43,955 nucleotides of DNA from an uncultured Anaerolineales bacterium (GTDB lineage: Bacteria; Chloroflexota; Anaerolineae; B4-G1): contig CAZDYW010000002.1 of the NCBI GenBank assembly GCA_964509655.1, positions 1 to 43,955 of the forward strand. The letters run 5' to 3'. This document shows, in pieces, positions 2,398 to 12,231 of this stretch (positions are counted from its first letter, which is position 1; each line of letters begins with the position of its first letter). Both the position numbers and the translations under genes were made by a program. Under the pieces are notes generated by a model. The model searched no databases and was not told the DNA's origin. It worked only from the letters and a program-made list of their open reading frames with translations.

Positions 2398-3048
2398 CTA
2401 AAGAAACTCTTTCAGATTATGCTTGACGGCGTAAGCAGCAGCTTCAGCGCGATTGGAAAGATCTAACTTGCTGAGAATGCTGCTGACATAGTTACGCACC
2501 GTGCCCTCGCCCAGATAAAGCGTATCGGCTATTTCGCGGTTAGTCTTTCCCTTGGCGACATGGGTCAAGACGTGCATCTCTTGATCGGTCAGATCCGCGA
2601 AAGCGTCCGCGTGCTCTCGTCGTGCCGCTTCCCGCACACGTGCGAAGACCCTCTGCGTGAGTGTTGGGTCCAGAAGTGCTTCACCTCGGCCCACCGCTTC
2701 CAAGGCACGGATCAGGTCATCATTACCGATCTGTTTAAGCACGTAGCCACATGCCCCAGCAGAGATGGCGTCAAACAACATCTCATCCTCGGCATAGGAG
2801 GTCAGCATAATGACTTTCGTATCCGACGCTTGTTCCTTGATCTGTCGGCAAGCGTCAATGCCGCTGCCACCCAGCAGTCGGATATCCATTACCACCACTT
2901 CAGGTTGGAGCAAGAGAGTCTTCTGAACCGCTTCCTTGACCGTCTCCGCTTCATCAACAACCGTGAAGCCAGGATGCCCTTCGATCAGAGTACGCAAGCC
3001 AAGCCGTACGACTTCGTGGTCATCGACGATGAGAATTCTAAGCGTCAT
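2398..3048 (-). CDS. NarL/LuxR-family response regulator
   Basis: 216 aa. Receiver domain ([14 protein letters not shown] ... VVVMDIRL ... KVIMLTS) and C-terminal LuxR HTH ([43 protein letters not shown]). Confidence 0.9.
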
Positions 3049-3061
3049 ACCTTCCTCAAAT

Positions 3062-4456
3062 CTAATATGGCACAGTAAGAATTATTGTCAAGCCCTCATG
3101 CGGCGCCGTGTCTATATCCAACATGCCGCCTAGCAAACGGGCGCGTTCGCGGATGTTGCGCAAGCCATGGCCGTTGTTATTAGGCAGCCGGGAAAGGCCC
3201 ACACCGTCATCGGATACACAAAGCTGGAGCGCATTGGCACCATACCACAAGCTCATCTCAACGCGACGTGCCTGTGAATGGCGAGCTACGTTAGTCAATG
3301 CCTCGCGGGCGATCTGGAAGACGTGTTGCCGACGCTCAGCACCCAGACCGTGCTCATCCTCTCCCTTCACACTGAAGCAAGTCTCCAACAAGGTATTTAC
3401 ACGAAAGTCTTTGAGGATTTTGCGCAAGCCAGTTTCCAGGTTATCCCTCGGCAGTTCACCACGCAGGTCGAAAATATAGCGCCGGATGTCCTGGATGGTC
3501 TGATTTAGGCTCTTGATGGCACGAGTCAGTTGATTGCGTGCCTCTTCCGGTCGAGTGAGGATATTATGCCGAGCACTCTCCAACATCAGTCCCGCCGCGT
3601 ATATTGATTGAATGATACCATCATGTAATTCTCGCCCAATGCGCTCACGCTCACTAACGAGAGCCTGCATGCGCTCCATATCCTCCAGCCAAAGCTCGAC
3701 CTCGCTCAAAACGGCCACCAAGGCCCGTACAACTCCATAGGTGATAGCAAGGCCACATAGGCCACGGAAGAGGGAGATAGAAATGCCAAGGGAGTTCAAC
3801 AACAGGTCCTCGTTGATCAAATTTGCGGGGAAGAAGGAAACTGCCGGCCCGATCAGCCCTCCGAAGATGGAGAAGATACCGAGTGCGAACCCAGTGACTC
3901 GCAGAGGAAGTTTGACCAAGGGTAATCGGTCACGTTCGATGGTGCGATATGTTTCACGACGCAGCCCCCAGGCTCCCATCAGGCCACCAGGGAAGGCAAG
4001 GCCATAACGCACCGCGAGCTCACCCCCCAACCACACCTGTTCGGAGGAAGCGCCGCATAGATGGGCTACAAACATTCCCCCCAGCCACGTTACCCAAAGG
4101 CCAGCGGGGATAACCCATCGCGCCCATCTCTGCCTCCCCGAAGGGAGACCAGCCTGTATGGCGAACATTAACAGAGCAGCATATCCTACTCCCAGCAGCA
4201 GCAAGCGCAGCCACATCAACTCAGGTTCCCACCGGTCCGAGATTCCAAGCCAAGCCCTAATCCAAGCTGCCAGTGCCTCGCAAAACCCGAACAAAGACAA
4301 AGGGACGAGGCCCCGTGCTACCTCCAGGCGTGCCCCTCGTCGCGCCAAGAAGATAATGGAGATTCCAAGTATAAAGAATGCTTGTCCATGTAAAAGTGCT
4401 AATCCGACCTGGCGAGTAGCGAGTGCGCTTTGCGGCATGATCATCCGATGTTCCAC
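3062..4456 (-). CDS. membrane sensor histidine kinase, HisKA_3/NarL type
   Basis: 464 aa. About 240 aa of multi-pass hydrophobic N-terminus, then the H-box [18 protein letters not shown] and HATPase_c motifs ([26 protein letters not shown]). The start may be GTG 4456 or ATG 4444. Confidence 0.85.
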
Positions 4457-4481: not shown

Positions 4482-4510
4482 ATTATACCAGCAATGCTTT
4501 TGTGAGACAA
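4482..4510 (-). promoter_or_regulatory. candidate sigma70-type promoter of the kinase/regulator operon
   Basis: On the minus strand: TTGTCT (4510..4505), 17-nt spacer, TATAAT (4487..4482). It lies just downstream of the operon terminator and about 25 nt upstream of the kinase start. Confidence 0.4.
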
Positions 4511-4519
4511 GAGCCAAAC

Positions 4520-4560
4520 GGGAAAGAAAAGCCCCCAAGGTTGTAGCAACCTTGGGGGCT
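4520..4560 (-). terminator. intrinsic terminator closing the hdr-fdh operon
   Basis: Minus-strand RNA GCCCCCAAGGUUG-CUA-CAACCUUGGGGGC (perfect 13-bp stem, 4559..4531) followed by UUUUCUUUC. It sits 42 nt after the ferritin-like gene stop. Confidence 0.75.
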
Positions 4561-4601: not shown

Positions 4602-5093
4602 CTAACCACCCCATGGCATCTGCGCATACTCCTCGAAAGCAGCGTCATGGATCTGCTTAAAAAAGGCCTCATGGCTGCGTTCCCATCGAGCAAGCATCTC
4701 CAGCGCCTTCTTCGCTTCTCCTTCGGCTTTACTGGCCGCTCTCTCGTAGAAGTCGACAAAATCGCGCTCGATCAGATAGGCCATGCGCAGCACCGGCAGA
4801 TCGGGCACCATCGCCTCCAGCACGGTCTGGTCGAGCATTTCGGAGTCGGCGCGTTTGGAGAAGAAACCTTCCTTCTCCAGTTCAAGGGCCATCGCTACGT
4901 TCGGCGGCTCTCCCTCATCCAAAGCATCCAGCAGGCCCTGGATGAACTCGATATGCTTTTGCTCCTCGCCGGCCAACCGTTTGAATGCCCCCACCGCCGC
5001 CGCGTGGCTCAAGCGCTCGGCATTCTCCTCAAAAAACCGCTTGCCCTCATACTCTCGCTGGAGAGCATATTCATAGATCTTGCGAATGTCCAT
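4602..5093 (-). CDS. ferritin-like / rubrerythrin-family diiron protein (no rubredoxin domain)
   Basis: 163 aa. Two E...ExxH-like pairs (EGKRFFEENA ... GEEQKHIEF; ERDFVDFYE ... WERSHEAFF) typical of the ferritin-like four-helix bundle. AGGAGG lies 5 nt upstream of the ATG, 26 nt after the fdhA stop. Confidence 0.65.
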   Translation of the reverse strand: MDIRKIYEYALQREYEGKRFFEENAERLSHAAAVGAFKRLAGEEQKHIEFIQGLLDALDEGEPPNVAMALELEKEGFFSKRADSEMLDQTVLEAMVPDLPVLRMAYLIERDFVDFYERAASKAEGEAKKALEMLARWERSHEAFFKQIHDAAFEEYAQMPWGG

Positions 5094-5119
5094 CTACTCC
5101 TCCTATCTCTAGCAGGTGA

Positions 5120-7180
5120 TCAATTCACCGGCTCGACGCGCACGGCACAGACCTTGTACTCAGGAATCTTGGCGATGGGATCAAGCGCCGCGTTGGTCAG
5201 CGCGTTGGCCGCCGCCTCGACGTAGTGGAAGGGAATGAAGACTACACCGGGCCGAATGCCCGTCGTAAGGCGCACGCTCAACTCGATCTCACCGCGTCGA
5301 CTGGCAACTCGCACCCGCTCCGCGCCATTCAATCCGATGCCAGCCGCATCGTCAGGATGGAGCTCGACGTAAGGCTCCGGTGCCTCCTGTTCTAGCTTCT
5401 CCGAGCGCCGAGTCATCGTGCCGGTATGCCAATGGAACATCATCCGGCCTGTGGTCAGGATGAGAGGATACTCATCGTCCGGCAACTCCACGGCCTCTTT
5501 GAACTCGATAGCATGGAAGTGACCCAGTCCCCGACTGAACATGCCTTTATGCAGATAAGGTGTGCCAGCGTGCTCCTCTGTCGGCACCGGCCATTGGAGA
5601 GAGCCTTCCCTATCCAGCCGCTCGAACGACACTCCGCCGTAGATGGGAGTGACTGCGGCGATCTCCTCCATCACTTCCTCCGGCGACTGGAAGTCAAACC
5701 CCCGAGCTCCTATCCGCTCGGCTAATTGGCAAAGAATCTCCCAATCCGGTTTAGATTCTCCCAATGGCTCGATCGCTTTGCGCACTCGCTGGACGCGCCG
5801 ATCGGTGCCGGTGAAGGTGCCTTCCTTCTCAGCAAACGAAGAACCAGGCAGGACGACATCGGCCAGTTCAGCAGTCTCGGTAAGGAAAATGTCCTGCACC
5901 ACGAGGAAATCAACTTCTTCTAGGCACTCGCGCACGTGGTTTACATCGGGATCGGAGAGCATGGGATTTTCCGCCATCACATAAAGGGCACGAGTGCTCC
6001 CATCCTCGGCTCCCCCTATCATGGCCGTCACCGTCTTTCCCACCTCGTCGGAGAGATTCTTGACGTTCCATACCTGCTCGAACTTCTCCTTGATCTCAGG
6101 CACTGTGACGGCCTGGTATCCGGAGTAGACGTTGGGCAGGCCCCCCAGATCGCAGGCGCCCTGGACATTGTTCTGGCCACGCAGGGGATTGACGCCGCCA
6201 CCAGGGATGCCCATATTGCCAGTGAGCATAGCCAGGTTTGCACATGACTTCACGTTATCGGTGCCAGTGGTATGTTGGGTGATGCCCATCGCGTAGAGGA
6301 TGGCCGCAGGTTTATTCTGCGCGTAAATCCGCGCTGCCTCTCGCAGGTCATCGGCGGGAATACCGCTGATCTCCTCCACCCGCTCTGGTGTATATTCGCT
6401 CACAACCTCACGGAGTTCATCGAGGCCCTCAGTCCGATCCTCTATGAAATCCTCATCATGCAACCCTTCGCTGATGATGACGTTCATCATACCGTTGATC
6501 CAGGCCACATTCGTGCCAGGGCGGGGTTGCAAGTACAGATCGGCCATACGCGCGATGTGTATCTTGCGCGGGTCCACGACGACGATTTTGGCCCCGCGCT
6601 CCTTGGCCTCCATCACGTGGCTGGCGACCAAAGGATGGGCCTCAGAGGTGTTGGAACCGGTGATGAGGAAACACTCGGTGTGTTCGCTGAACTCCGGGAC
6701 GGAGTTGGTCATCGCTCCACTGCCAAACGCGGCGACCAGACCGGCCACCGTGGGAGCGTGTCAGAGGCGTGCGCAGTGATCGACGTTGTTCGTCTTGAAC
6801 ACTGCGCGGGAAAGCTTCTGGATGAGATAGTTCTCCTCGTTGGTGCATTTGGCCGAGGCTAAGAAACTAATGCTATCAGAGCCATACTCATCAGAAATGG
6901 TAGTCAATCGCTCCGCCACCAATCCCAGCGCTTCCTCCCATGTTGCCTCCTCAAGTTGGGCCGAGGGACCATCCCCGCGCCGAATGAGAGGGGTCTTAAG
7001 CCGATCAGGGTGATTGACAAAAGCATCGACGTTCCAGCCCTTGATGCACAGCTGACCGCGACTGATCGGATGTTCCTTATCGGGCAGAACTCCTATGATT
7101 TCTCCATCGAGCACCTGAAAATAAATCCCGCACCCACACCCACAATAAACACAGGTGGTGAGGACGTTTCGGTATTCCAT
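5120..7180 (-). CDS. fdhA: formate dehydrogenase catalytic (alpha) subunit, molybdopterin/tungstopterin, selenocysteine-containing (UGA at 6761..6763 read as Sec)
   Basis: ORFs 6761..7225 and 5120..6748 are in one frame (2061 nt = 687 codons from ATG 7180). Read-through gives [32 protein letters not shown], matching the FdhF/FdhA Sec block. N-terminal 4Fe-4S motif CVYCGCGCG...C. No twin-arginine signal. ATG 7180 has GGGAGG 5 nt upstream and follows the TAG of the upstream gene, so the 7225 start is rejected. Confidence 0.85.
6713..6763 (-). promoter_or_regulatory. Sec UGA plus candidate bacterial SECIS hairpin of fdhA
   Basis: UGA at 6763..6761. After an 11-nt spacer there is an upper stem GGUGGCC/GGUCGCC (6749..6743 pairs with 6737..6731; 7 bp including 2 G-U) with apical loop GGUCU (6742..6738). 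A lower 6-bp stem CGCUCC/GGAGCG (6758..6753 with 6718..6713) is also present. Confidence 0.6.
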
Positions 7181-7190
7181 AAATGCCTCC

Positions 7191-8021
7191 CTACTCCAAC
7201 CTCGAAAGTATCGGCGCCTCTCCAAAAGTCAGAGAGAGCGGTGGTGCATCCTCAATATCGGCCCCAGGCTCGTATCCCACCAAAGTTCCTACGTCCCGTC
7301 GGATCAAGTCATAGAGGACTGTCAATGGAATATGGGCCGGGCAGACCAACTCACATTGGCGGCAAGCGACACAGCGACTGGACATATGCATCGCCCGGAC
7401 TAGATGGAACATTGGGAAGGGGGGAGCCAACACACCCGGTTCCACCCACAAGGGGTCTTCCAAAGCGCAGGCTTCACAGAAGCATTCCGGGCAAATGTTG
7501 CGACACCCATAACACTTGATACACTTCAAGAACTGTTCTTGCCAGAATTCCCGCCGCTCCGCAAGCGACATCTCCTCATATTCCGCGACTAGAGGATTAG
7601 GCGGCCCACTTTCAACCGGCGTTCCGATCAACTCGGCTTGAGGCCAAGGGTCCAATTTAGGCGCAGGATCGGCACAATGACATTCTTCAGCTTCCTCCTC
7701 GGTACAAGCCACCCCTAGTAAGTAGAGCCTATCAGGATCGACTTGTGCTCGCTTGGCCATCTCCACTAATGCGCGGGCGTCACATCCGCGGGCCACAACA
7801 CCTAATTGAGCCTCTGGATAGCGTTTCTGCAAAGCGGAAATGATAAGGCCCATCGCGTAGCGGGGCTCCAGGACCAACTCAGAAGTGTCATCCCCTTCTT
7901 GGAAAAGGTAGGGCGCAGTGCCAACCTCTGTCTTCCGTAGCGCCAAAACGCCATCCAGTTCTTTGAGTTTCTCCGCCACGTGGGCGCGAAGTTCTTCCAT
8001 CAATGTACTTCGTTCGGTCAT
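7191..8021 (-). CDS. 4Fe-4S dicluster protein, putative electron-transfer subunit between FdhA and MvhD/HdrA (FrhB/FdhB- or AsrA-like, family uncertain)
   Basis: Two Cys clusters: CIKCYGCRNICPECFCEAC and CVACRQCELVCP. The N-terminal part contains GVVARGCDARALVEMAK...LLGVAC, reminiscent of FrhB/FdhB-type folds. ATG 8021 has GAGGAG upstream and is preferred. The track start 8072 is a TTG without a good SD. Confidence 0.55.
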   Translation of the reverse strand: MTERSTLMEELRAHVAEKLKELDGVLALRKTEVGTAPYLFQEGDDTSELVLEPRYAMGLIISALQKRYPEAQLGVVARGCDARALVEMAKRAQVDPDRLYLLGVACTEEEAEECHCADPAPKLDPWPQAELIGTPVESGPPNPLVAEYEEMSLAERREFWQEQFLKCIKCYGCRNICPECFCEACALEDPLWVEPGVLAPPFPMFHLVRAMHMSSRCVACRQCELVCPAHIPLTVLYDLIRRDVGTLVGYEPGADIEDAPPLSLTFGEAPILSRLE

Positions 8022-8080
8022 CCTCAGCTCCTCTATGTCGGCATATTGGTGTATTGGCGACCAATCTACCAATTACCAGC

Positions 8081-8503
8081 CTACCGGTCTACCATTTCGT
8101 CGGCGATTGGTCCCAGCGCCCTCACCTTCTCCACGAATTCCTTCGTCACTTTGGCGAACTTCGGCGCCTCGGCCGACGAGACCCAGTCCAGCACGAACCG
8201 GTCAGGGTGAACGCCGACGTACTTCAACAGGTTATGCACCAACGGCATACGCTTTGCCGTGCGGTGATTGCCGTCGATGTAGTGGCAATCGCCGATGTGA
8301 CAACCCAGCACCATCACGCCGTCTGCGCCAGAGCGGAAGGCTCGCAGCACCATCTCCGGCGACACCCGTCCCGAGCACATCACACGGATGGGCAAGACGT
8401 TGGCCGGTGATTGCATCCGGGCCACACCAGCGTTATCCGCCCCGGCATAGGAGCACCAATTACACAAGAAAGCAACAACTCTCGGTTCGAAATCTTCACT
8501 CAT
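8081..8503 (-). CDS. mvhD: MvhD/FlpD-family protein (methyl-viologen-reducing hydrogenase delta subunit-like, 2Fe-2S)
   Basis: 140 aa. Contains VAFLCNWCSYAGADNAG ... IRVMCSGRV ... GADGVMVLGCHIGDCHY, the hallmark FlpD/MvhD pattern. Confidence 0.85.
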   Translation of the reverse strand: MSEDFEPRVVAFLCNWCSYAGADNAGVARMQSPANVLPIRVMCSGRVSPEMVLRAFRSGADGVMVLGCHIGDCHYIDGNHRTAKRMPLVHNLLKYVGVHPDRFVLDWVSSAEAPKFAKVTKEFVEKVRALGPIADEMVDR

Positions 8504-8571
8504 TGTGATTATCCTTTAAGGATACGCCCCATGCACAAAAAGTGTCTGTTGCATAGGGAGTAGTGCGCAAA

Positions 8572-10530
8572 TCATCCCACCATGGCCAACAGGCCATCGA
8601 TCTGGGCCACGATTTCCTGATCGGTGAAGTGCAGTTCCGTGACAGCGCCAGAGGGGCAGGTGGCCACGCAAGTGCCACATCCATGACAAAGGGCAGCATT
8701 GACCTCTGCCTTCCCATCGCTGTTTCGGTCAATGGCAGAATAGGGGCAGGATTTTATGCACTCGCCACACCCCACACAAGCTTCCGTCATCACCTCGGCG
8801 ACGATGGGGGAAATAGCAACCTCTCCCTTATTGAAAATTTTGACAGCTTCCTGCGCAGCCGCTCCCGCGTGGGCCACTGTATCGGGAACATCGCGCGGCC
8901 CCTGGCAACAGCCGGCCAGGAAGACGCCAGCGGTGCTGGTCTCAACCGGGCGCAGCTTAGGATGAGCCTCAGCGAACCAGCCATCTGGCGTGCGCCCCAG
9001 CCCGAAGAGAGATGCTACTTTATTGGAATCAGCATAAGGCTCGATAGCAGAGGCAAGAATGACCATATCCACGTCGGCGATGACTAATCTGCCCAGGTCA
9101 GCGTCCTCGCCCTTGACGCGCAGCTTATCATTGGGCAGCACCTCAACCTCGGCGCCGCGACCGCGCACAAAGGTGACTCCTTCCTCCTGTACCCGCTCGT
9201 AGAACTCTTCGTAGGCCTTACCGAAAGCTCGCATGTCCATATAGAAATCATAGACTTCGGCGCCTGTCTTATCGCGCACCTGGTGGGCATGCTTGAGCGA
9301 GTACATGCAGCAGAAACGGGAGCAGTATTCGTGGGCATTCTCATCCCGGCTACCCACGCAGTGGATAATGGCGACGTTCTCCGGAACCTCTCCCTCGGCG
9401 GTCACGATCTCCCCGCCGGTAGGGCCGCTGGCATTGGTGATGCGCTCAAATTGCAAACCGGTGATGATATTAGGGGATTCGCCGTAGGAATACTGCGGGA
9501 GATTCGTGGGGTCCCACATCTCGAAGCCGGTGGCTATGACGATAGCTCCCACCTCCACGTCGAGCAGTTCATCCTCTTGCTCATAATCAACTGCGCCTGT
9601 GGGGCAGACTCTGGCGCATAAGCCACAACGTCCATCCCGCTGGAAGTAGATGCAGTGATCTGTGTCAATCACCGGCACGTTGGGGATGGCCTGAGAGAAA
9701 GGACGATAAATGGCCTTTCGCTTACCCATCCCGGCCTCATAATCGGTGTCGATAACCTTGGTAGGACATTTCTCCTGACAGAGGCCACAACCGGTGCAAA
9801 GATCCTCGTCCACATACCGGGCATGCTTGCGGATACGGGCTTGGAAATTACCTATGTAACCGGAGATTTCCTCGACCTCACTATAGGTTAAAAGCTCAAT
9901 CTTGGGATGCCGACCGGCATCCATCATTTTGGGGCCGAGGATTCAGGTGCTACAGTCAAGTGTGGGGAAGGTCTTATCGAGCTGAGCCATCCGCCCGCCA
10001 ATGGAGGGCTCTTTTTCCACCAGATAGACTTGGTAGCCAGAATCGGCGATGGAGAGCGCAGCCTGTATGCCCGCGATGCCGCCTCCGACCACGAGCGCGG
10101 CCTCGGAGACCGGCTCCTGGCGGGGCTCCAAAGGTTTATGATAGGCCACTCGCGCTACCGCTGACCGTACCAGGCGCTTCGCCTTCTCCGTAGCTTTCTC
10201 CTTGTCCTTGATCACCCAGGAGACGTGCTCGCGGATGTTGGCCATTTCGAAGAAGTAGGGGTTAAGCCCAGCGCCAGCCAGCGCCCGCTGGAAGGTGGGC
10301 TCATGCATTCGAGGGGTACAAGAGGCCACCACCACCCGCTCCAGGTCCAGATCACGGATATCCTCTTGGATCATCTCTTGTCCGGGTTCGGAGCAAGTGT
10401 ATTTATGCTGCCGAGCAATGACCACGCCAGGCAGTTCAGCGGCCATCTCCACCACGGATGATACGTCCACCGTAGCCGCGATGTTGACGCCACACTCACA
10501 GATGTAGACTCCAATGCGAGGTTCTTCCAT
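8572..10530 (-). CDS. hdrA: heterodisulfide reductase subunit A-like flavoprotein, selenocysteine-containing (UGA at 9943..9945 read as Sec)
   Basis: ORFs 9943..10530 and 8572..9927 share one frame (1959 nt = 653 codons). Read-through gives [27 protein letters not shown]. Other features: N-terminal [15 protein letters not shown] motif [13 protein letters not shown], inserted ferredoxin ([21 protein letters not shown]), and C-terminal ferredoxin ([24 protein letters not shown]). Confidence 0.85.
9905..9945 (-). promoter_or_regulatory. Sec UGA plus candidate bacterial SECIS hairpin of hdrA
   Basis: UGA at 9945..9943. Twenty nt downstream there is a perfect 7-bp stem GGAUGCC/GGCAUCC (9922..9916 with 9911..9905) and a 4-nt apical loop GGUC (9915..9912). 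Confidence 0.7.
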
Positions 10531-10571
10531 AACGTATGAACTCCTTATGCTGACAGTCGGTATCGCTTGGC

Positions 10572-11438
10572 TTACAGAAAATCACTCAACGCCGGTCTCA
10601 CTGACACGACGTGCCGCTTGAACAACAACTTATCCTCCGATAACCCAAAGGCCAATCCGATCAGTTGAGGCAAGAAGAGGATTGGGACATGTAATTCCTG
10701 GTTCATCACGCGCGAGGCCTTACCCTGATAGCTGTCCAGGTTCATATGGCACATCGGACAGACAGTCGAGACGCAATCGGCAGGCTGACATTTCGCCAGT
10801 ATCTCCCCTGCCATGTGATGGCCGACCCTGGGCTTGGTCATCATCAATGAAGTGCCACAGCAAGATGCCTCTCGAGGATGATGATGCACTTCAGCACCCA
10901 ATGCCTCTAAGATGGCGACCATTGAAGTAGGCTTCTCATCATCGTCGAAGGCGCTATAAGGGCGAACGGTCTGGCAACCGTAGTAGGGAGCGACGGTCAA
11001 GCCCTCTAGCGGGCGCTGCACCCGCTCGGCGTAATCCTCCGGGCTGAAATCGTTCGCCAGCACATCCATCAAATGGCGCGACTTGACAGTATTGCGATAG
11101 CTCAAACCCTCCACCTCTAACGCCTTGTTTACTTTTTCCAGAAGCTTTGGATCATCGGAGAGAGCTTGTGAGGTACGCCGAAAGTTGGTGTAGCAAGCAC
11201 TGCAAACAGCGAGCATGTCCGAGGTGTCATCAGCTTGCTCTGCCAAAGCCAGGTTACGAGCTGGAAGCACGATGCCCAGGAGATCACTGATCACCGGAGC
11301 CGCGCTGGCCCCACAGCAGGTCCAATCTTCCAATTCCTCCACCTCAGCCCCCAAGGCCTTCAGCACGGCAAGTGTCGAAGCCTTGTACTCCAGAGCAGAA
11401 GCGTCCGCTGAACAGCCGGGGTAAAAAAGATACTTCAT
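10572..11438 (-). CDS. hdrB: heterodisulfide reductase subunit B-like (two CCG domains)
   Basis: 288 aa. Two complete Cys patterns: YPGC...WTCCG...VCSAC and YYGC...ASCCG...VCPMC. The start overlaps the hdrC stop (ATGA). Confidence 0.85.
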
Positions 11439-12013
11439 TGCTGCGCCTCCAGTTCTGCCACACGCTCAAACAGCGGCTCTAAACGTCCCTCACCGCCCAG
11501 CTTAGGCATTTCTGGGTAAGCCTTTCCACGACTAACCAGGGTGATTCCAAGACCGGCGAAGCCCAGAGCACTCAAAGGATTAGTAGCCAAGAAGAAACGT
11601 ACCATAAACTCCATCTCCCGCATACGTCCATAGCGGCGCACAATGTCGACAAAGGTACGATAGAAGCCAACGCTATCCTTGGATGCAGCGATTCTTTGCT
11701 CAATCGCCATCTCTTTAAGGCGGGTGATGGTCTCGGTGAGAGGAATACCACGGGGGCAACGCACTTGGCACTGATAACAAAGGCTGCATAGCCACATTGT
11801 CTTGCTGCGCAGCACCTCGTCTGTCAGGCCCAACTGTACCATGCGCCACATCTTGCGGGGGCTGATGTCCATCGCTGGAGCTGCCGGGCAGGATGCGGTG
11901 CAAGTACCACACTGAATACAGCGACGGAGAAGTTCTCCATTCTCGATGAGGTGATCTGCAAAGGCGGGATCACGTTTCGCCGTCGTTAAGTTCACAACCT
12001 CAGCAGTCGCCAA
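11435..12013 (-). CDS. hdrC: heterodisulfide reductase subunit C-like (2x 4Fe-4S)
   Basis: 192 aa. CIQCGTCTASCP and CSLCYQCQVRCP. TTG start with AGGAGG 6 nt upstream. Confidence 0.8.
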   Translation of the reverse strand: MATAEVVNLTTAKRDPAFADHLIENGELLRRCIQCGTCTASCPAAPAMDISPRKMWRMVQLGLTDEVLRSKTMWLCSLCYQCQVRCPRGIPLTETITRLKEMAIEQRIAASKDSVGFYRTFVDIVRRYGRMREMEFMVRFFLATNPLSALGFAGLGITLVSRGKAYPEMPKLGGEGRLEPLFERVAELEAQQ

Positions 12014-12203
12014 AGGGGACCTCCTGTTTTTCTACTGTATCTCAAGAATGTTCCCACTATTTATGACAGCGATCACCCATCATCCACAGCGGGGGAATAT
12101 CCGGTGCACCTTTACCATAATCAATTGGCACCTGACATTATAGCACAGAGGATAAGCCAAAATACTTATCATGAGGTGGCTAAACGGCTTACAACACCAG
12201 TAG

Positions 12204-12231
12204 ATTGTACATGTTTACCACAATCTGTCAA
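12204..12231 (-). promoter_or_regulatory. candidate promoter of the hdr-fdh operon with overlapping inverted repeat
   Basis: Minus strand: TTGACA (12231..12226), 16-nt spacer, TACAAT (12209..12204). The inverted repeat AGATTGT-N11-ACAATCT (12202..12226) spans the spacer and -10. A second weaker candidate, TGcTATAAT, has its -10 at 12140..12135. Confidence 0.4.

Follow-up and report, generated by a model that had tools for sequence, protein, structure and literature searches.

The 44-kb stretch of contig analysed here (the window) comes from an uncultured Anaerolineae host and carries, at 4602-12013 on the minus strand, seven co-directional genes in the order hdrC, hdrB, hdrA, mvhD, an iron-sulfur (FeS) gene that we call fdhB', fdhA, and a gene for a ferritin-like diiron protein. 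With a probability of roughly 0.7, we take this operon to encode a cytoplasmic, soluble complex of the Fdh-MvhD-HdrABC type, which would couple formate or CO2 at a formate dehydrogenase (FDH) to both ferredoxin and a disulfide by electron bifurcation or confurcation. The methanogen-type complex is favored because each of the six core proteins finds its best match among the subunits of solved Fdh-Hdr or Elp-Hdr complexes. A first-pass annotation had proposed a formate:ferredoxin/disulfide bifurcating-type module at this locus, and that proposal holds as far as can be judged from the sequence.

Structure of the operon

The features of the operon and its two boundaries are given below in the order of transcription.

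12204..12231, minus strand: predicted sigma-70-type promoter, TTGACA-16-TACAAT, 11/12 matches, about 190 nt upstream of hdrC
11435..12013, minus strand: hdrC, 192 aa; two CxxCxxCxxxC motifs (8 Cys) for two [4Fe-4S] clusters
10572..11438, minus strand: hdrB, 288 aa; 10 Cys in two complete CCG motifs, for two non-cubane [4Fe-4S] clusters
8572..10530, minus strand: hdrA, 652 aa, predicted selenoprotein; flavin adenine dinucleotide (FAD) motif with N-terminal, inserted, and C-terminal cluster domains
9943..9945, minus strand: in-frame TGA, selenocysteine (Sec) 196 of HdrA, aligned with a Cys of methanogen HdrA
9905..9922, minus strand: hairpin of hdrA resembling a selenocysteine insertion sequence (SECIS); 7-bp stem, GGUC loop, beginning 20 nt past the UGA (21st base)
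8081..8503, minus strand: mvhD, 140 aa, FlpD family; 5 Cys, predicted [2Fe-2S] connector to HdrA
7191..8021, minus strand: fdhB', 276 aa, FdhB/FrhB family; 15 conserved Cys (N-terminal 4-Cys site, two ferredoxin motifs, CxCxxC), without the domain binding FAD and coenzyme F420 (PF04432)
5120..7180, minus strand: fdhA, 686 aa, catalytic subunit with a molybdenum or tungsten (Mo/W) bis-pyranopterin guanine dinucleotide site; Sec140-His141 and an N-terminal [4Fe-4S] motif
6761..6763, minus strand: in-frame TGA, Sec140 of FdhA, in the context HCARL-U-H
6732..6748, minus strand: SECIS-like hairpin of fdhA; 6-bp stem, GGUCU loop, beginning 12 nt past the UGA (13th base)
4602..5093, minus strand: ferritin-like (rubrerythrin-family) diiron protein, 163 aa; last gene of the operon here, accessory in relatives
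4520..4560, minus strand: intrinsic terminator closing the operon; 14-bp stem with 9 GC pairs, loop of 3, T-tract

The gene junctions measure -4, 41, 68, 59, 10, and 26 nt, and a Shine-Dalgarno-like sequence is found at each. The hdrC gene starts with TTG behind the Shine-Dalgarno sequence AGGAGG, and the start of hdrB overlaps the hdrC stop by 4 nt. The gene list and the short junctions of the first-pass annotation were borne out, and two start codons were corrected. The upstream TTG at 8072 given for the FeS gene was replaced by the ATG at 8021, the most likely start in view of homologue lengths of 270-276 aa, and the start of fdhA was moved to the ATG at 7180.

The bracketing promoter and terminator named in that annotation are, respectively, the strongest promoter-like site of the region (12231..12204) and its strongest terminator (4560..4530), which lies past the last gene. 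Promoter-like and terminator-like sites as a class showed no enrichment over shuffled sequences, and only these two strong sites were therefore counted. A transcript from the promoter is predicted to carry a leader of about 190 nt. The leader matched no Rfam family, an E-value scan giving a chance CPEB3 match only, and its fold was no better than those of shuffles; the idea of a riboswitch there was dropped on these grounds. At the gathering threshold, Rfam gave no match in the whole window, including none to SECIS or to the Moco riboswitch.

The Hdr module and MvhD

Searches with Pfam and NCBIfam profiles confirmed the families to which the products had been provisionally assigned (CCG, FlpD, HdrA, molybdopterin FDH, and ferritin-like). 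In HdrA, 27 Cys and one Sec were mapped. The protein comprises an N-terminal 4-Cys domain, the expected FAD motif, GGGIAG, at 149, and two 8-Cys ferredoxin domains, one inserted (residues 245-309) and one C-terminal (residues 585-625). It scored 851 bits against NCBIfam NF040770 (HdrA2) and matched the solved structures 8rvu_a (E 1.2e-231, residues 1-648), 5odc_A (E 1.3e-229), and 7bkb_A. A grouping of HdrA with non-bifurcating homologues would have spoken against the proposed module; we found instead that 8rvu_a aligns over the full length, whereas the short non-bifurcating sHdrA of 6tjr covers residues 325-565 only. By this comparison the window HdrA is a full-length bifurcating-type HdrA, of the plain type with no GltD insertion.

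HdrB holds its 10 Cys in two CCG motifs, C9-X31-CC-X36-CxxC and C155-X37-CC-X32-CxxC, both as complete as first described. Pfam PF02754 (CCG) matched it in two stretches (E 6.2e-24), and methanogen HdrB 5odc_B aligned with it end to end (E 4.6e-40 over residues 1-285). HdrC matched 8rvv_C (E 1.2e-19) and 7bkb_C (E 2.3e-19). Every cluster Cys is retained in the alignments of the two proteins with their methanogen counterparts, and both are clearly of the HdrBC fold. MvhD matched PF02662 (FlpD) over its full length (E 6.6e-53), as well as the MvhD part of HdrA2, and no hydrogenase is encoded with it, as had been noted. We know of no role for MvhD beyond docking an input module to HdrA.

The predicted formate input arm

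FdhA begins with MEYRNVLTTCVYCGCGCG. It has no Tat or other signal peptide and should thus be cytoplasmic, in line with the initial prediction. Its score against NCBIfam TIGR01591 (Fdh-alpha) was 888.9 bits, above the cut-off of 666.25. The best solved match was 9t1s_L, the Hdr-bound FdhA2 of Methanococcus maripaludis (E 9.4e-239), followed by 7qv7_S, the FdhF of a hydrogen-dependent CO2 reductase (HDCR), and then by 7bkb_D.

The product of fdhB' had been left as a non-canonical FeS subunit, in effect an orphan. In Pfam and NCBIfam it gave weak Fer4, LutB, and AsrA matches only, with none to PF04422 or PF04432. Searches of the PDB sequences with phmmer matched it to 9t1s_M (FdhB of M. maripaludis, E 7.4e-36), 7bkb_E (FdhB of Methanospirillum hungatei, E 3.4e-29), and 8rvu_E (ElpB, E 6.9e-26), each in two stretches between which about 115 residues of the archaeal protein were skipped. 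Foldseek with an AlphaFold model (predicted local distance difference test score 74.8) placed 8rvu_E and 7bkb_E at the top, followed by FrhB, HCAR, and Fsr on the N-terminal domain. An identity as AsrA or sulfhydrogenase beta subunit was rejected, since both the PDB sequence and the fold searches pointed to FdhB/ElpB/FrhB.

The FdhB' family in a 50%-identity library numbered 683 representatives at E <= 1e-10. Those of about 400 aa that were tested contain PF04422, PF04432, and Fer4; the form of 265-290 aa has no detectable PF04422 or PF04432, and in the alignment about 110 residues spanning PF04432 are deleted. In the close homologues 15 Cys are invariant, namely C80, C106, C114, and C116 together with those of two CxxCxxCxxxCP motifs and of CxCxxC. 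FdhB and ElpB have been reported with four [4Fe-4S] clusters (PMC12350162), and the 15 Cys of FdhB' are close to the 16 ligands needed for that number. We thus read the FeS subunit as an FdhB homologue that has lost its FAD/F420 site and is probably a pure iron-sulfur wire. With that domain gone, the input arm would be dedicated to formate/CO2, and no F420 side reaction is expected.

Conservation of the operon in related genomes

Related loci were recovered in 66 cases (numbered here with an L), and the counts in this section are from the 63 whose FdhB' is at least 50% identical. Nearly all of the 66 belong to metagenome-assembled genomes (MAGs) of Anaerolineae or Thermoflexia, with one Deltaproteobacteria MAG (L054) and distant members in Aminicenantes and Dehalococcoidales. 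The closest is from an uncultured Anaerolineales MAG, with operon proteins 93-100% identical and the same mazG neighbour. Some 60 genome assemblies of Anaerolineae keep the mvhD-fdhB'-fdhA module, in most cases preceded by hdrA. The gene immediately upstream of fdhB' is mvhD in 50/53 loci, fdhA is downstream of it in 34/35, and hdrA is upstream in 33/38; hdrB falls inside the 10-kb flank in 19/32.

Three kinds of gene recur beside the operons of relatives: one for a MobA-like guanylyltransferase in 12 loci, one for an FNT formate/nitrite channel in 9, and one for a HypA-like protein in 9. None of the three is in the window. A second HdrB/HdrD-like protein and sensor or regulator genes recur as well. 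We counted the FNT and MobA-like neighbours in favor of the Fdh-Hdr reading.

Selenocysteine in HdrA and FdhA

Mechanical calling of open reading frames (ORFs) splits both hdrA and fdhA at an in-frame TGA, as it would if the stops were real, the two genes were pseudogenes or split genes, and the operon were decaying. The distribution of the TGA codons leaves this reading practically no weight. The TGA of hdrA falls on the Cys of FPTLDCSMCIL in methanogen HdrA; among related loci, this position is TGA in 38/42 and TGC or TGT in the other four. The fdhA position is TGA in 49/50, and the exception, L052, has the Cys codon TGC at both the HdrA and the FdhA positions, a paired switch. On both sides of each TGA the frame is intact and conserved.

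SECIS-like hairpins follow both UGAs, with synonymous variation suppressed. Across 19 loci the hdrA hairpin is invariant in nucleotide sequence whereas the wobble positions beside it vary, and a single compensatory change (C-G to U-A) occurs in L048 and L057. The fdhA hairpin is kept in 19 loci, with G-C/G-U exchanges and one G-C to A-U change. Folds of the single sequences past both UGAs were no better than those of shuffles, so the SECIS argument rests on conservation across loci, not on energy. We therefore regard the pseudogene reading as effectively refuted by the TGA/Cys conservation across related loci, and we assign both HdrA and FdhA as selenoproteins, as the first-pass annotation did. 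The selABCD genes are not within the window. A Sec-containing HdrA and a cytoplasmic Sec-containing FdhA are already known in sulfate reducers (PMC5109826).

Comparison with known Hdr complexes

The methanogen FdhAB-MvhD-HdrABC complexes (that of M. maripaludis; 7BKB, the Fdh-Hdr-Fmd assembly from M. hungatei; FdhA2B2-Hdr of M. maripaludis, 9T1S) contain the same six subunit types as the window. The cofactor Cys and the FAD motif are shared, as are a cytoplasmic FDH with no signal peptide and an MvhD connector with no hydrogenase. The flavin-containing FdhB (PF04422 plus PF04432) is a defining feature of the methanogen family, whereas FdhB' lacks PF04432, and neither F420 reduction nor F420H2-driven bifurcation is expected. 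The window also differs in its bacterial host, which has no known coenzyme M (CoM) or coenzyme B (CoB), in having no Fmd/Fwd or polyferredoxin genes, and in grouping all its genes in a single operon; in methanogens, the fdh genes often lie apart from the hdr genes. Judged by its sequence, the operon is best filed as one that would work like Fdh-MvhD-HdrABC with a derived input arm, and not as a strict member of that family.

The first-pass annotation had called this the least-explained system in the window. The same type of cluster was, however, described in 2017 as HdrBCA-MvhD-FdhBA with a Sec-containing FDH, in the single-cell genomes DscP3 and Dsc4 of marine Chloroflexi and in Desulfobacula toluolica Tol2 (Sewell et al. 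2017, PMC5736913). That description, which is genomic only, suggested a heterodisulfide-reductase-associated, possibly bifurcating FDH (PMC5736913). Compared by description, the two clusters share hdrC/B, hdrA, mvhD, the FeS protein designated FdhB, and the Sec-fdhA, both are without mvhAG, and DscP3 and Dsc4 are of the same phylum as the window. On the same basis the window differs in having hdrC and hdrB as separate genes that overlap, a selenoprotein HdrA in addition to the Sec-containing FDH, and an added diiron gene; the 2017 account does not remark on the missing flavin domain of its FdhB. The window therefore adds a member to a bacterial type that was already predicted from genomes.

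The Elp-Hdr complex of Methanothermobacter marburgensis (8RVU) and the archaeal type II HdrA-Molybdop-FdhB clusters have the same arm, in which FdhA-like, FdhB-like, and MvhD-like proteins sit on HdrABC. They are a mirror image of the Anaerolineae module: there the molybdopterin/formate site was lost and the F420H2-oxidising FAD site kept, and here the reverse. MetFV-HdrABC-MvhD of Moorella, FlxABCD-HdrABC of Desulfovibrio, and HdrABC/HdrL-MvhD-FeS of Syntrophobacter (Sfum_0819-0824) share the HdrABC core and MvhD in a non-methanogen. Their disulfide acceptor is of the DsrC type or not known, as with the window, and their inputs are NADH or methylene-tetrahydrofolate, whereas that of the window is an FDH. 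An FdhB-like FeS protein adjoins mvhD/hdrL in Syntrophobacter (PMC5947623), and Hdr-hydrogenase clusters have been noted in Anaerolineae in the literature.

Proposed electron path and alternative readings

By homology to 7BKB, 8RVU, and 9T1S, formate would be oxidised at the Sec-Mo/W-pterin site of FdhA, and the electrons would pass through the FdhA [4Fe-4S] cluster to FdhB', which has no flavin and about four [4Fe-4S] clusters. From there they would reach the N-terminal cluster or clusters of HdrA, the [2Fe-2S] cluster of MvhD, and the FAD of HdrA, where the pair would be split. One electron, of low potential, would exit by the inserted ferredoxin domain and reduce ferredoxin; the other, of high potential, would move through HdrC to the two non-cubane clusters of HdrB and on to a disulfide, in all likelihood not CoM-S-S-CoB. 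We expect the reaction to be reversible, and a fermentative or syntrophic Anaerolineae bacterium could equally run the complex as a confurcating CO2 reductase, with electrons from ferredoxin and a thiol yielding formate. For the methanogen FdhAB-MvhD-HdrABC complex, bifurcation is experimentally established (PMC12350162, PMC13518236). For the window operon, the sequence shows gene content, cofactor motifs, homology, Sec decoding signals, and kept synteny, whereas the assembly of a complex, bifurcation, its direction, and its acceptor are inferred.

Several observations weigh against the assignment. HdrB and HdrC miss the NCBIfam CoB-CoM cut-offs (161.6 vs 345 bits and 87.5 vs 160, respectively), and HdrB scores slightly higher on the SdhE model (184.8 vs 161.6 bits), so that HdrB may act on another kind of substrate. 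The window contains no gene for a candidate disulfide carrier such as DsrC or LbpA, and no thiol carrier (DsrC, TusA, LbpA, or GcvH-like) recurs among the flanking ORFs of the 63 related loci. Some relatives have no adjacent hdrCB, and in L026 and L037 mvhD-fdhB'-fdhA occurs by itself. Co-transcription of the seven genes is itself a prediction, and the sequence fixes neither the metal of FdhA (Mo or W) nor the direction of the reaction. Bacterial Fdh-Hdr complexes are so far genomic predictions.

The direction bears on the possibility, to which we give less than even odds, that the same complex works in reverse as a confurcating CO2 reductase, using reduced ferredoxin and a thiol (or another mid- or high-potential donor) to make formate that is exported as a sink; the architecture would be the same. 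Methanogen Hdr complexes reduce CO2 to formate via FdhAB under bifurcating conditions (PMC13518236), syntroph HdrABC-type complexes are thought to confurcate (PMC5947623), and the best-matching non-Hdr FdhA is the CO2-reducing HDCR FdhF (7qv7_S). The FNT channels beside the operon in nine relatives can serve export as well as import. With the direction left unfixed by sequence, these points are set against the proposal of Sewell et al. that, in the Chloroflexi cluster, formate oxidation feeds the Wood-Ljungdahl pathway (PMC5736913).

The remaining alternatives concern the acceptor and the coupling. We consider it unlikely that the HdrBC-like module reduces no soluble or protein disulfide and passes its high-potential electrons to a quinone at an SdhE-like CCG site, to a sulfur compound, or, via the diiron protein, to peroxide or O2. 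The best NCBIfam match of HdrB is indeed the SdhE subunit of methylmenaquinol:fumarate reductase (2.4e-54), but both HdrB scores, SdhE and CoB-CoM, are far under the cut-off; the protein can be aligned with methanogen HdrB over its whole length, its two CCG motifs are intact, and the operon has no membrane subunit. For the diiron route, a rubrerythrin has been proposed as terminal partner in the bifurcating Rub-Bfu family (PMC9304861), and the diiron gene is translationally close to fdhA, beginning 26 nt after it with a strong Shine-Dalgarno sequence; against it, the gene is found in only 5/33 related operons and also follows an FDH of the non-Hdr, NuoF/NuoG type. Less likely again is the absence of bifurcation, whether through a linear flow that conserves no energy from formate via HdrA to ferredoxin or to an HdrBC substrate, or with the Fdh and Hdr modules as separate neighbours. 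The two loci in which mvhD-fdhB'-fdhA has no adjacent hdrA would fit this reading, as would the 13/32 loci with hdrCB missing from the 10-kb flank, but many of the missing hdrCB are explained by insertions of 1.3-3.4 kb in hdrA that push them past the flank examined. Moreover, docking to HdrA is the only known role of MvhD, hdrA and mvhD are adjacent in 33/38 loci, and the window HdrA keeps all domains and clusters of the bifurcating enzyme.

Within the Fdh-MvhD-HdrABC-type reading, we propose only tentatively that the Anaerolineae complex couples formate/CO2 and ferredoxin to an acceptor that is neither CoM-S-S-CoB nor DsrC and that the flavin-less FdhB' marks a bacterial lineage with a formate-only input. 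Equally tentative candidates for such an acceptor, taken together, would be a new low-molecular-weight or protein disulfide and, in operons carrying the diiron gene, the diiron protein as a peroxide or O2 sink. The host Anaerolineae are non-methanogenic and probably do not reduce sulfate.

The diiron protein

The last product of the operon matched Pfam Rubrerythrin with 37.7 bits (cut-off 22.8). Its six diiron ligands (E14, E44/H47, E109, E138/H141) are invariant; the C-terminal rubredoxin domain of classical rubrerythrin is missing. Solved structures gave weak matches only (TM1526, 1vjx, E 0.046), and Foldseek with the predicted structure gave generic helical-bundle and ferritin-like matches at E >= 0.01, with none at E <= 0.001. 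More than 2,000 close homologues were found.

The gene lies downstream of fdhA in 5/33 evaluable related loci. It follows a Sec-fdhA in the contexts examined, some of which are Hdr-type operons, and in two contexts genes for a ParA/ArsA-like ATPase and MobA come next. At L071:987-6492, a diiron protein 77% identical to that of the window follows a NuoF-like gene and a NuoG-fused Sec-FdhA, with no hdr genes. Since the gene also stands beside an FDH without hdr, it tracks formate dehydrogenase genes and not hdr, and it is optional. The first-pass annotation had left its role open, and no specific function is assigned here either; the new elements are its association with FDH genes and its presence in only a minority of the related operons. 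The protein is most likely an accessory or protective (or maturation) partner of the oxygen-sensitive FDH and not a core subunit.

Variant operons in relatives

The hdrA gene is interrupted at the inserted ferredoxin domain in two groups of relatives. In about 10 loci (L009, L014, L038, L039, L041, L042, L044, L045, L048, and L049) it is split in two, with about 3.2-3.4 kb between the halves (for example L014:4237-9536) holding two nuoE-like genes (2Fe-2S_thioredx) and one nuoF-like gene (Complex1_51K, NADH_4Fe-4S). An N-terminal Fer2_4/[4Fe-4S] NuoG/HydA-like domain is fused there to the C-terminal half of HdrA, and upstream are regulator genes (PHP, HATPase, and DRTGG) of the sort typical for HydABC loci. 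We found no description of such a split-HdrA Hdr/Bfu-like hybrid in the HdrA survey PMC12054007; co-occurrence of HdrA and BfuABC is known for Bam (PMC9304861). In seven further operons (L003, L007, L013, L019, L020, L033, and L057; for example L013:6760-9498), HdrA has an in-frame GltD/NfnB-like insert of about 450 aa (Fer4_20 plus Pyr_redox_2). This is HdrL, or type III HdrA, a known variant, and implies NAD(P)H coupling in these sister operons. Inteins or introns as the cause of the gaps in the tblastn matches of relatives' HdrA were rejected, the gaps being the GltD-like in-frame domain or the nuoE/nuoF-like genes. The insertion of NAD(P)H modules exactly at the inserted ferredoxin domain fits a role of that domain as the low-potential exit and gives it indirect support.

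Other variation affects the donor side and HdrBC. Some related Anaerolineae loci have an HdrL-like HdrA or a Flx/Asr-like module beside the Fdh-Hdr operon. At L067:405-5734, a second Hdr input module lies directly upstream of hdrCB-hdrA-mvhD-fdhB'-fdhA-rbr and comprises two Fer4 proteins (one Fer4_22/AsrA-like), an FNR-like protein with NAD_binding_1 and DHODB_Fe-S_bind, a further Sec-type HdrA-like gene, and an additional mvhD; a single HdrBC may serve two donor arms there. In L054, L055, L057, and L058, HdrA (59-69%) and FdhA (66-73%) are far more similar to the window proteins than are HdrB and HdrC (only 37-46% identical), and MvhD and FdhB' are likewise far closer. This pattern of identities suggests that the HdrBC module has been exchanged independently of the rest of the operon.

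Toxin-antitoxin pairs of MntA (Polbeta nucleotidyltransferase) and HepT were found between mvhD and fdhB' at L010:9142-10022, L017:8406-9288, and L034:2280-3160, and L017 has further small genes at this place, where the gap in the window is 59 nt. The space between mvhD and fdhB' looks like a hot spot for insertions. A gene of the HypA family (Ni/Zn metallochaperone) lies between fdhA and a downstream MobA-like gene in nine loci (L015, L017, L018, L022, L023, L025, L028, L030, and L063; for example L063:9806-10168), none of which encodes a hydrogenase.

Flanking genes in the window

Directly past the operon terminator, and behind a promoter-like site (4510..4482, minus strand), are genes for a multi-pass-membrane HisKA_3 histidine kinase (3062-4456, minus strand) and a LuxR-type response regulator (2398-3048, minus strand), which form a NarL-type pair. 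The kinase keeps the same place in L006 and L010 (65-69% identity), and the pair is a possible regulator of the operon. Further genes on this side encode a zinc alcohol dehydrogenase and a DUF4230 protein. The hdrC side is housekeeping, with a mazG-methylase fusion, truA, rpoA, ribosomal protein genes, and secY. Within the housekeeping block at 14686-43785, Pfam identified truA, rpoA, ribosomal protein S4, methionine aminopeptidase, and secY, and large ORFs farther along would, by size alone, suit EF-Tu, EF-G, S7, and a subunit of RNA polymerase. These surroundings place the Fdh-Hdr operon in the core chromosome and not in an obvious mobile element.

Implications

The substrate of bacterial HdrABC, and whether it bifurcates, is a long-standing open question in anaerobic bioenergetics. 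The present operon is not a new kind of system, and with its hosts uncultured it is not the easiest experimental entry point; it is nevertheless a well-defined target, being one operon with two predicted selenoproteins and with products clearly homologous to proteins of solved structure. A complete methanogen-like Fdh-Hdr set with no F420 site is conserved in many uncultured Anaerolineae, organisms that are abundant in sediments, digesters, and subsurface habitats. In such bacteria the complex could set the exchange of formate with partners or feed ferredoxin-dependent CO2 fixation.

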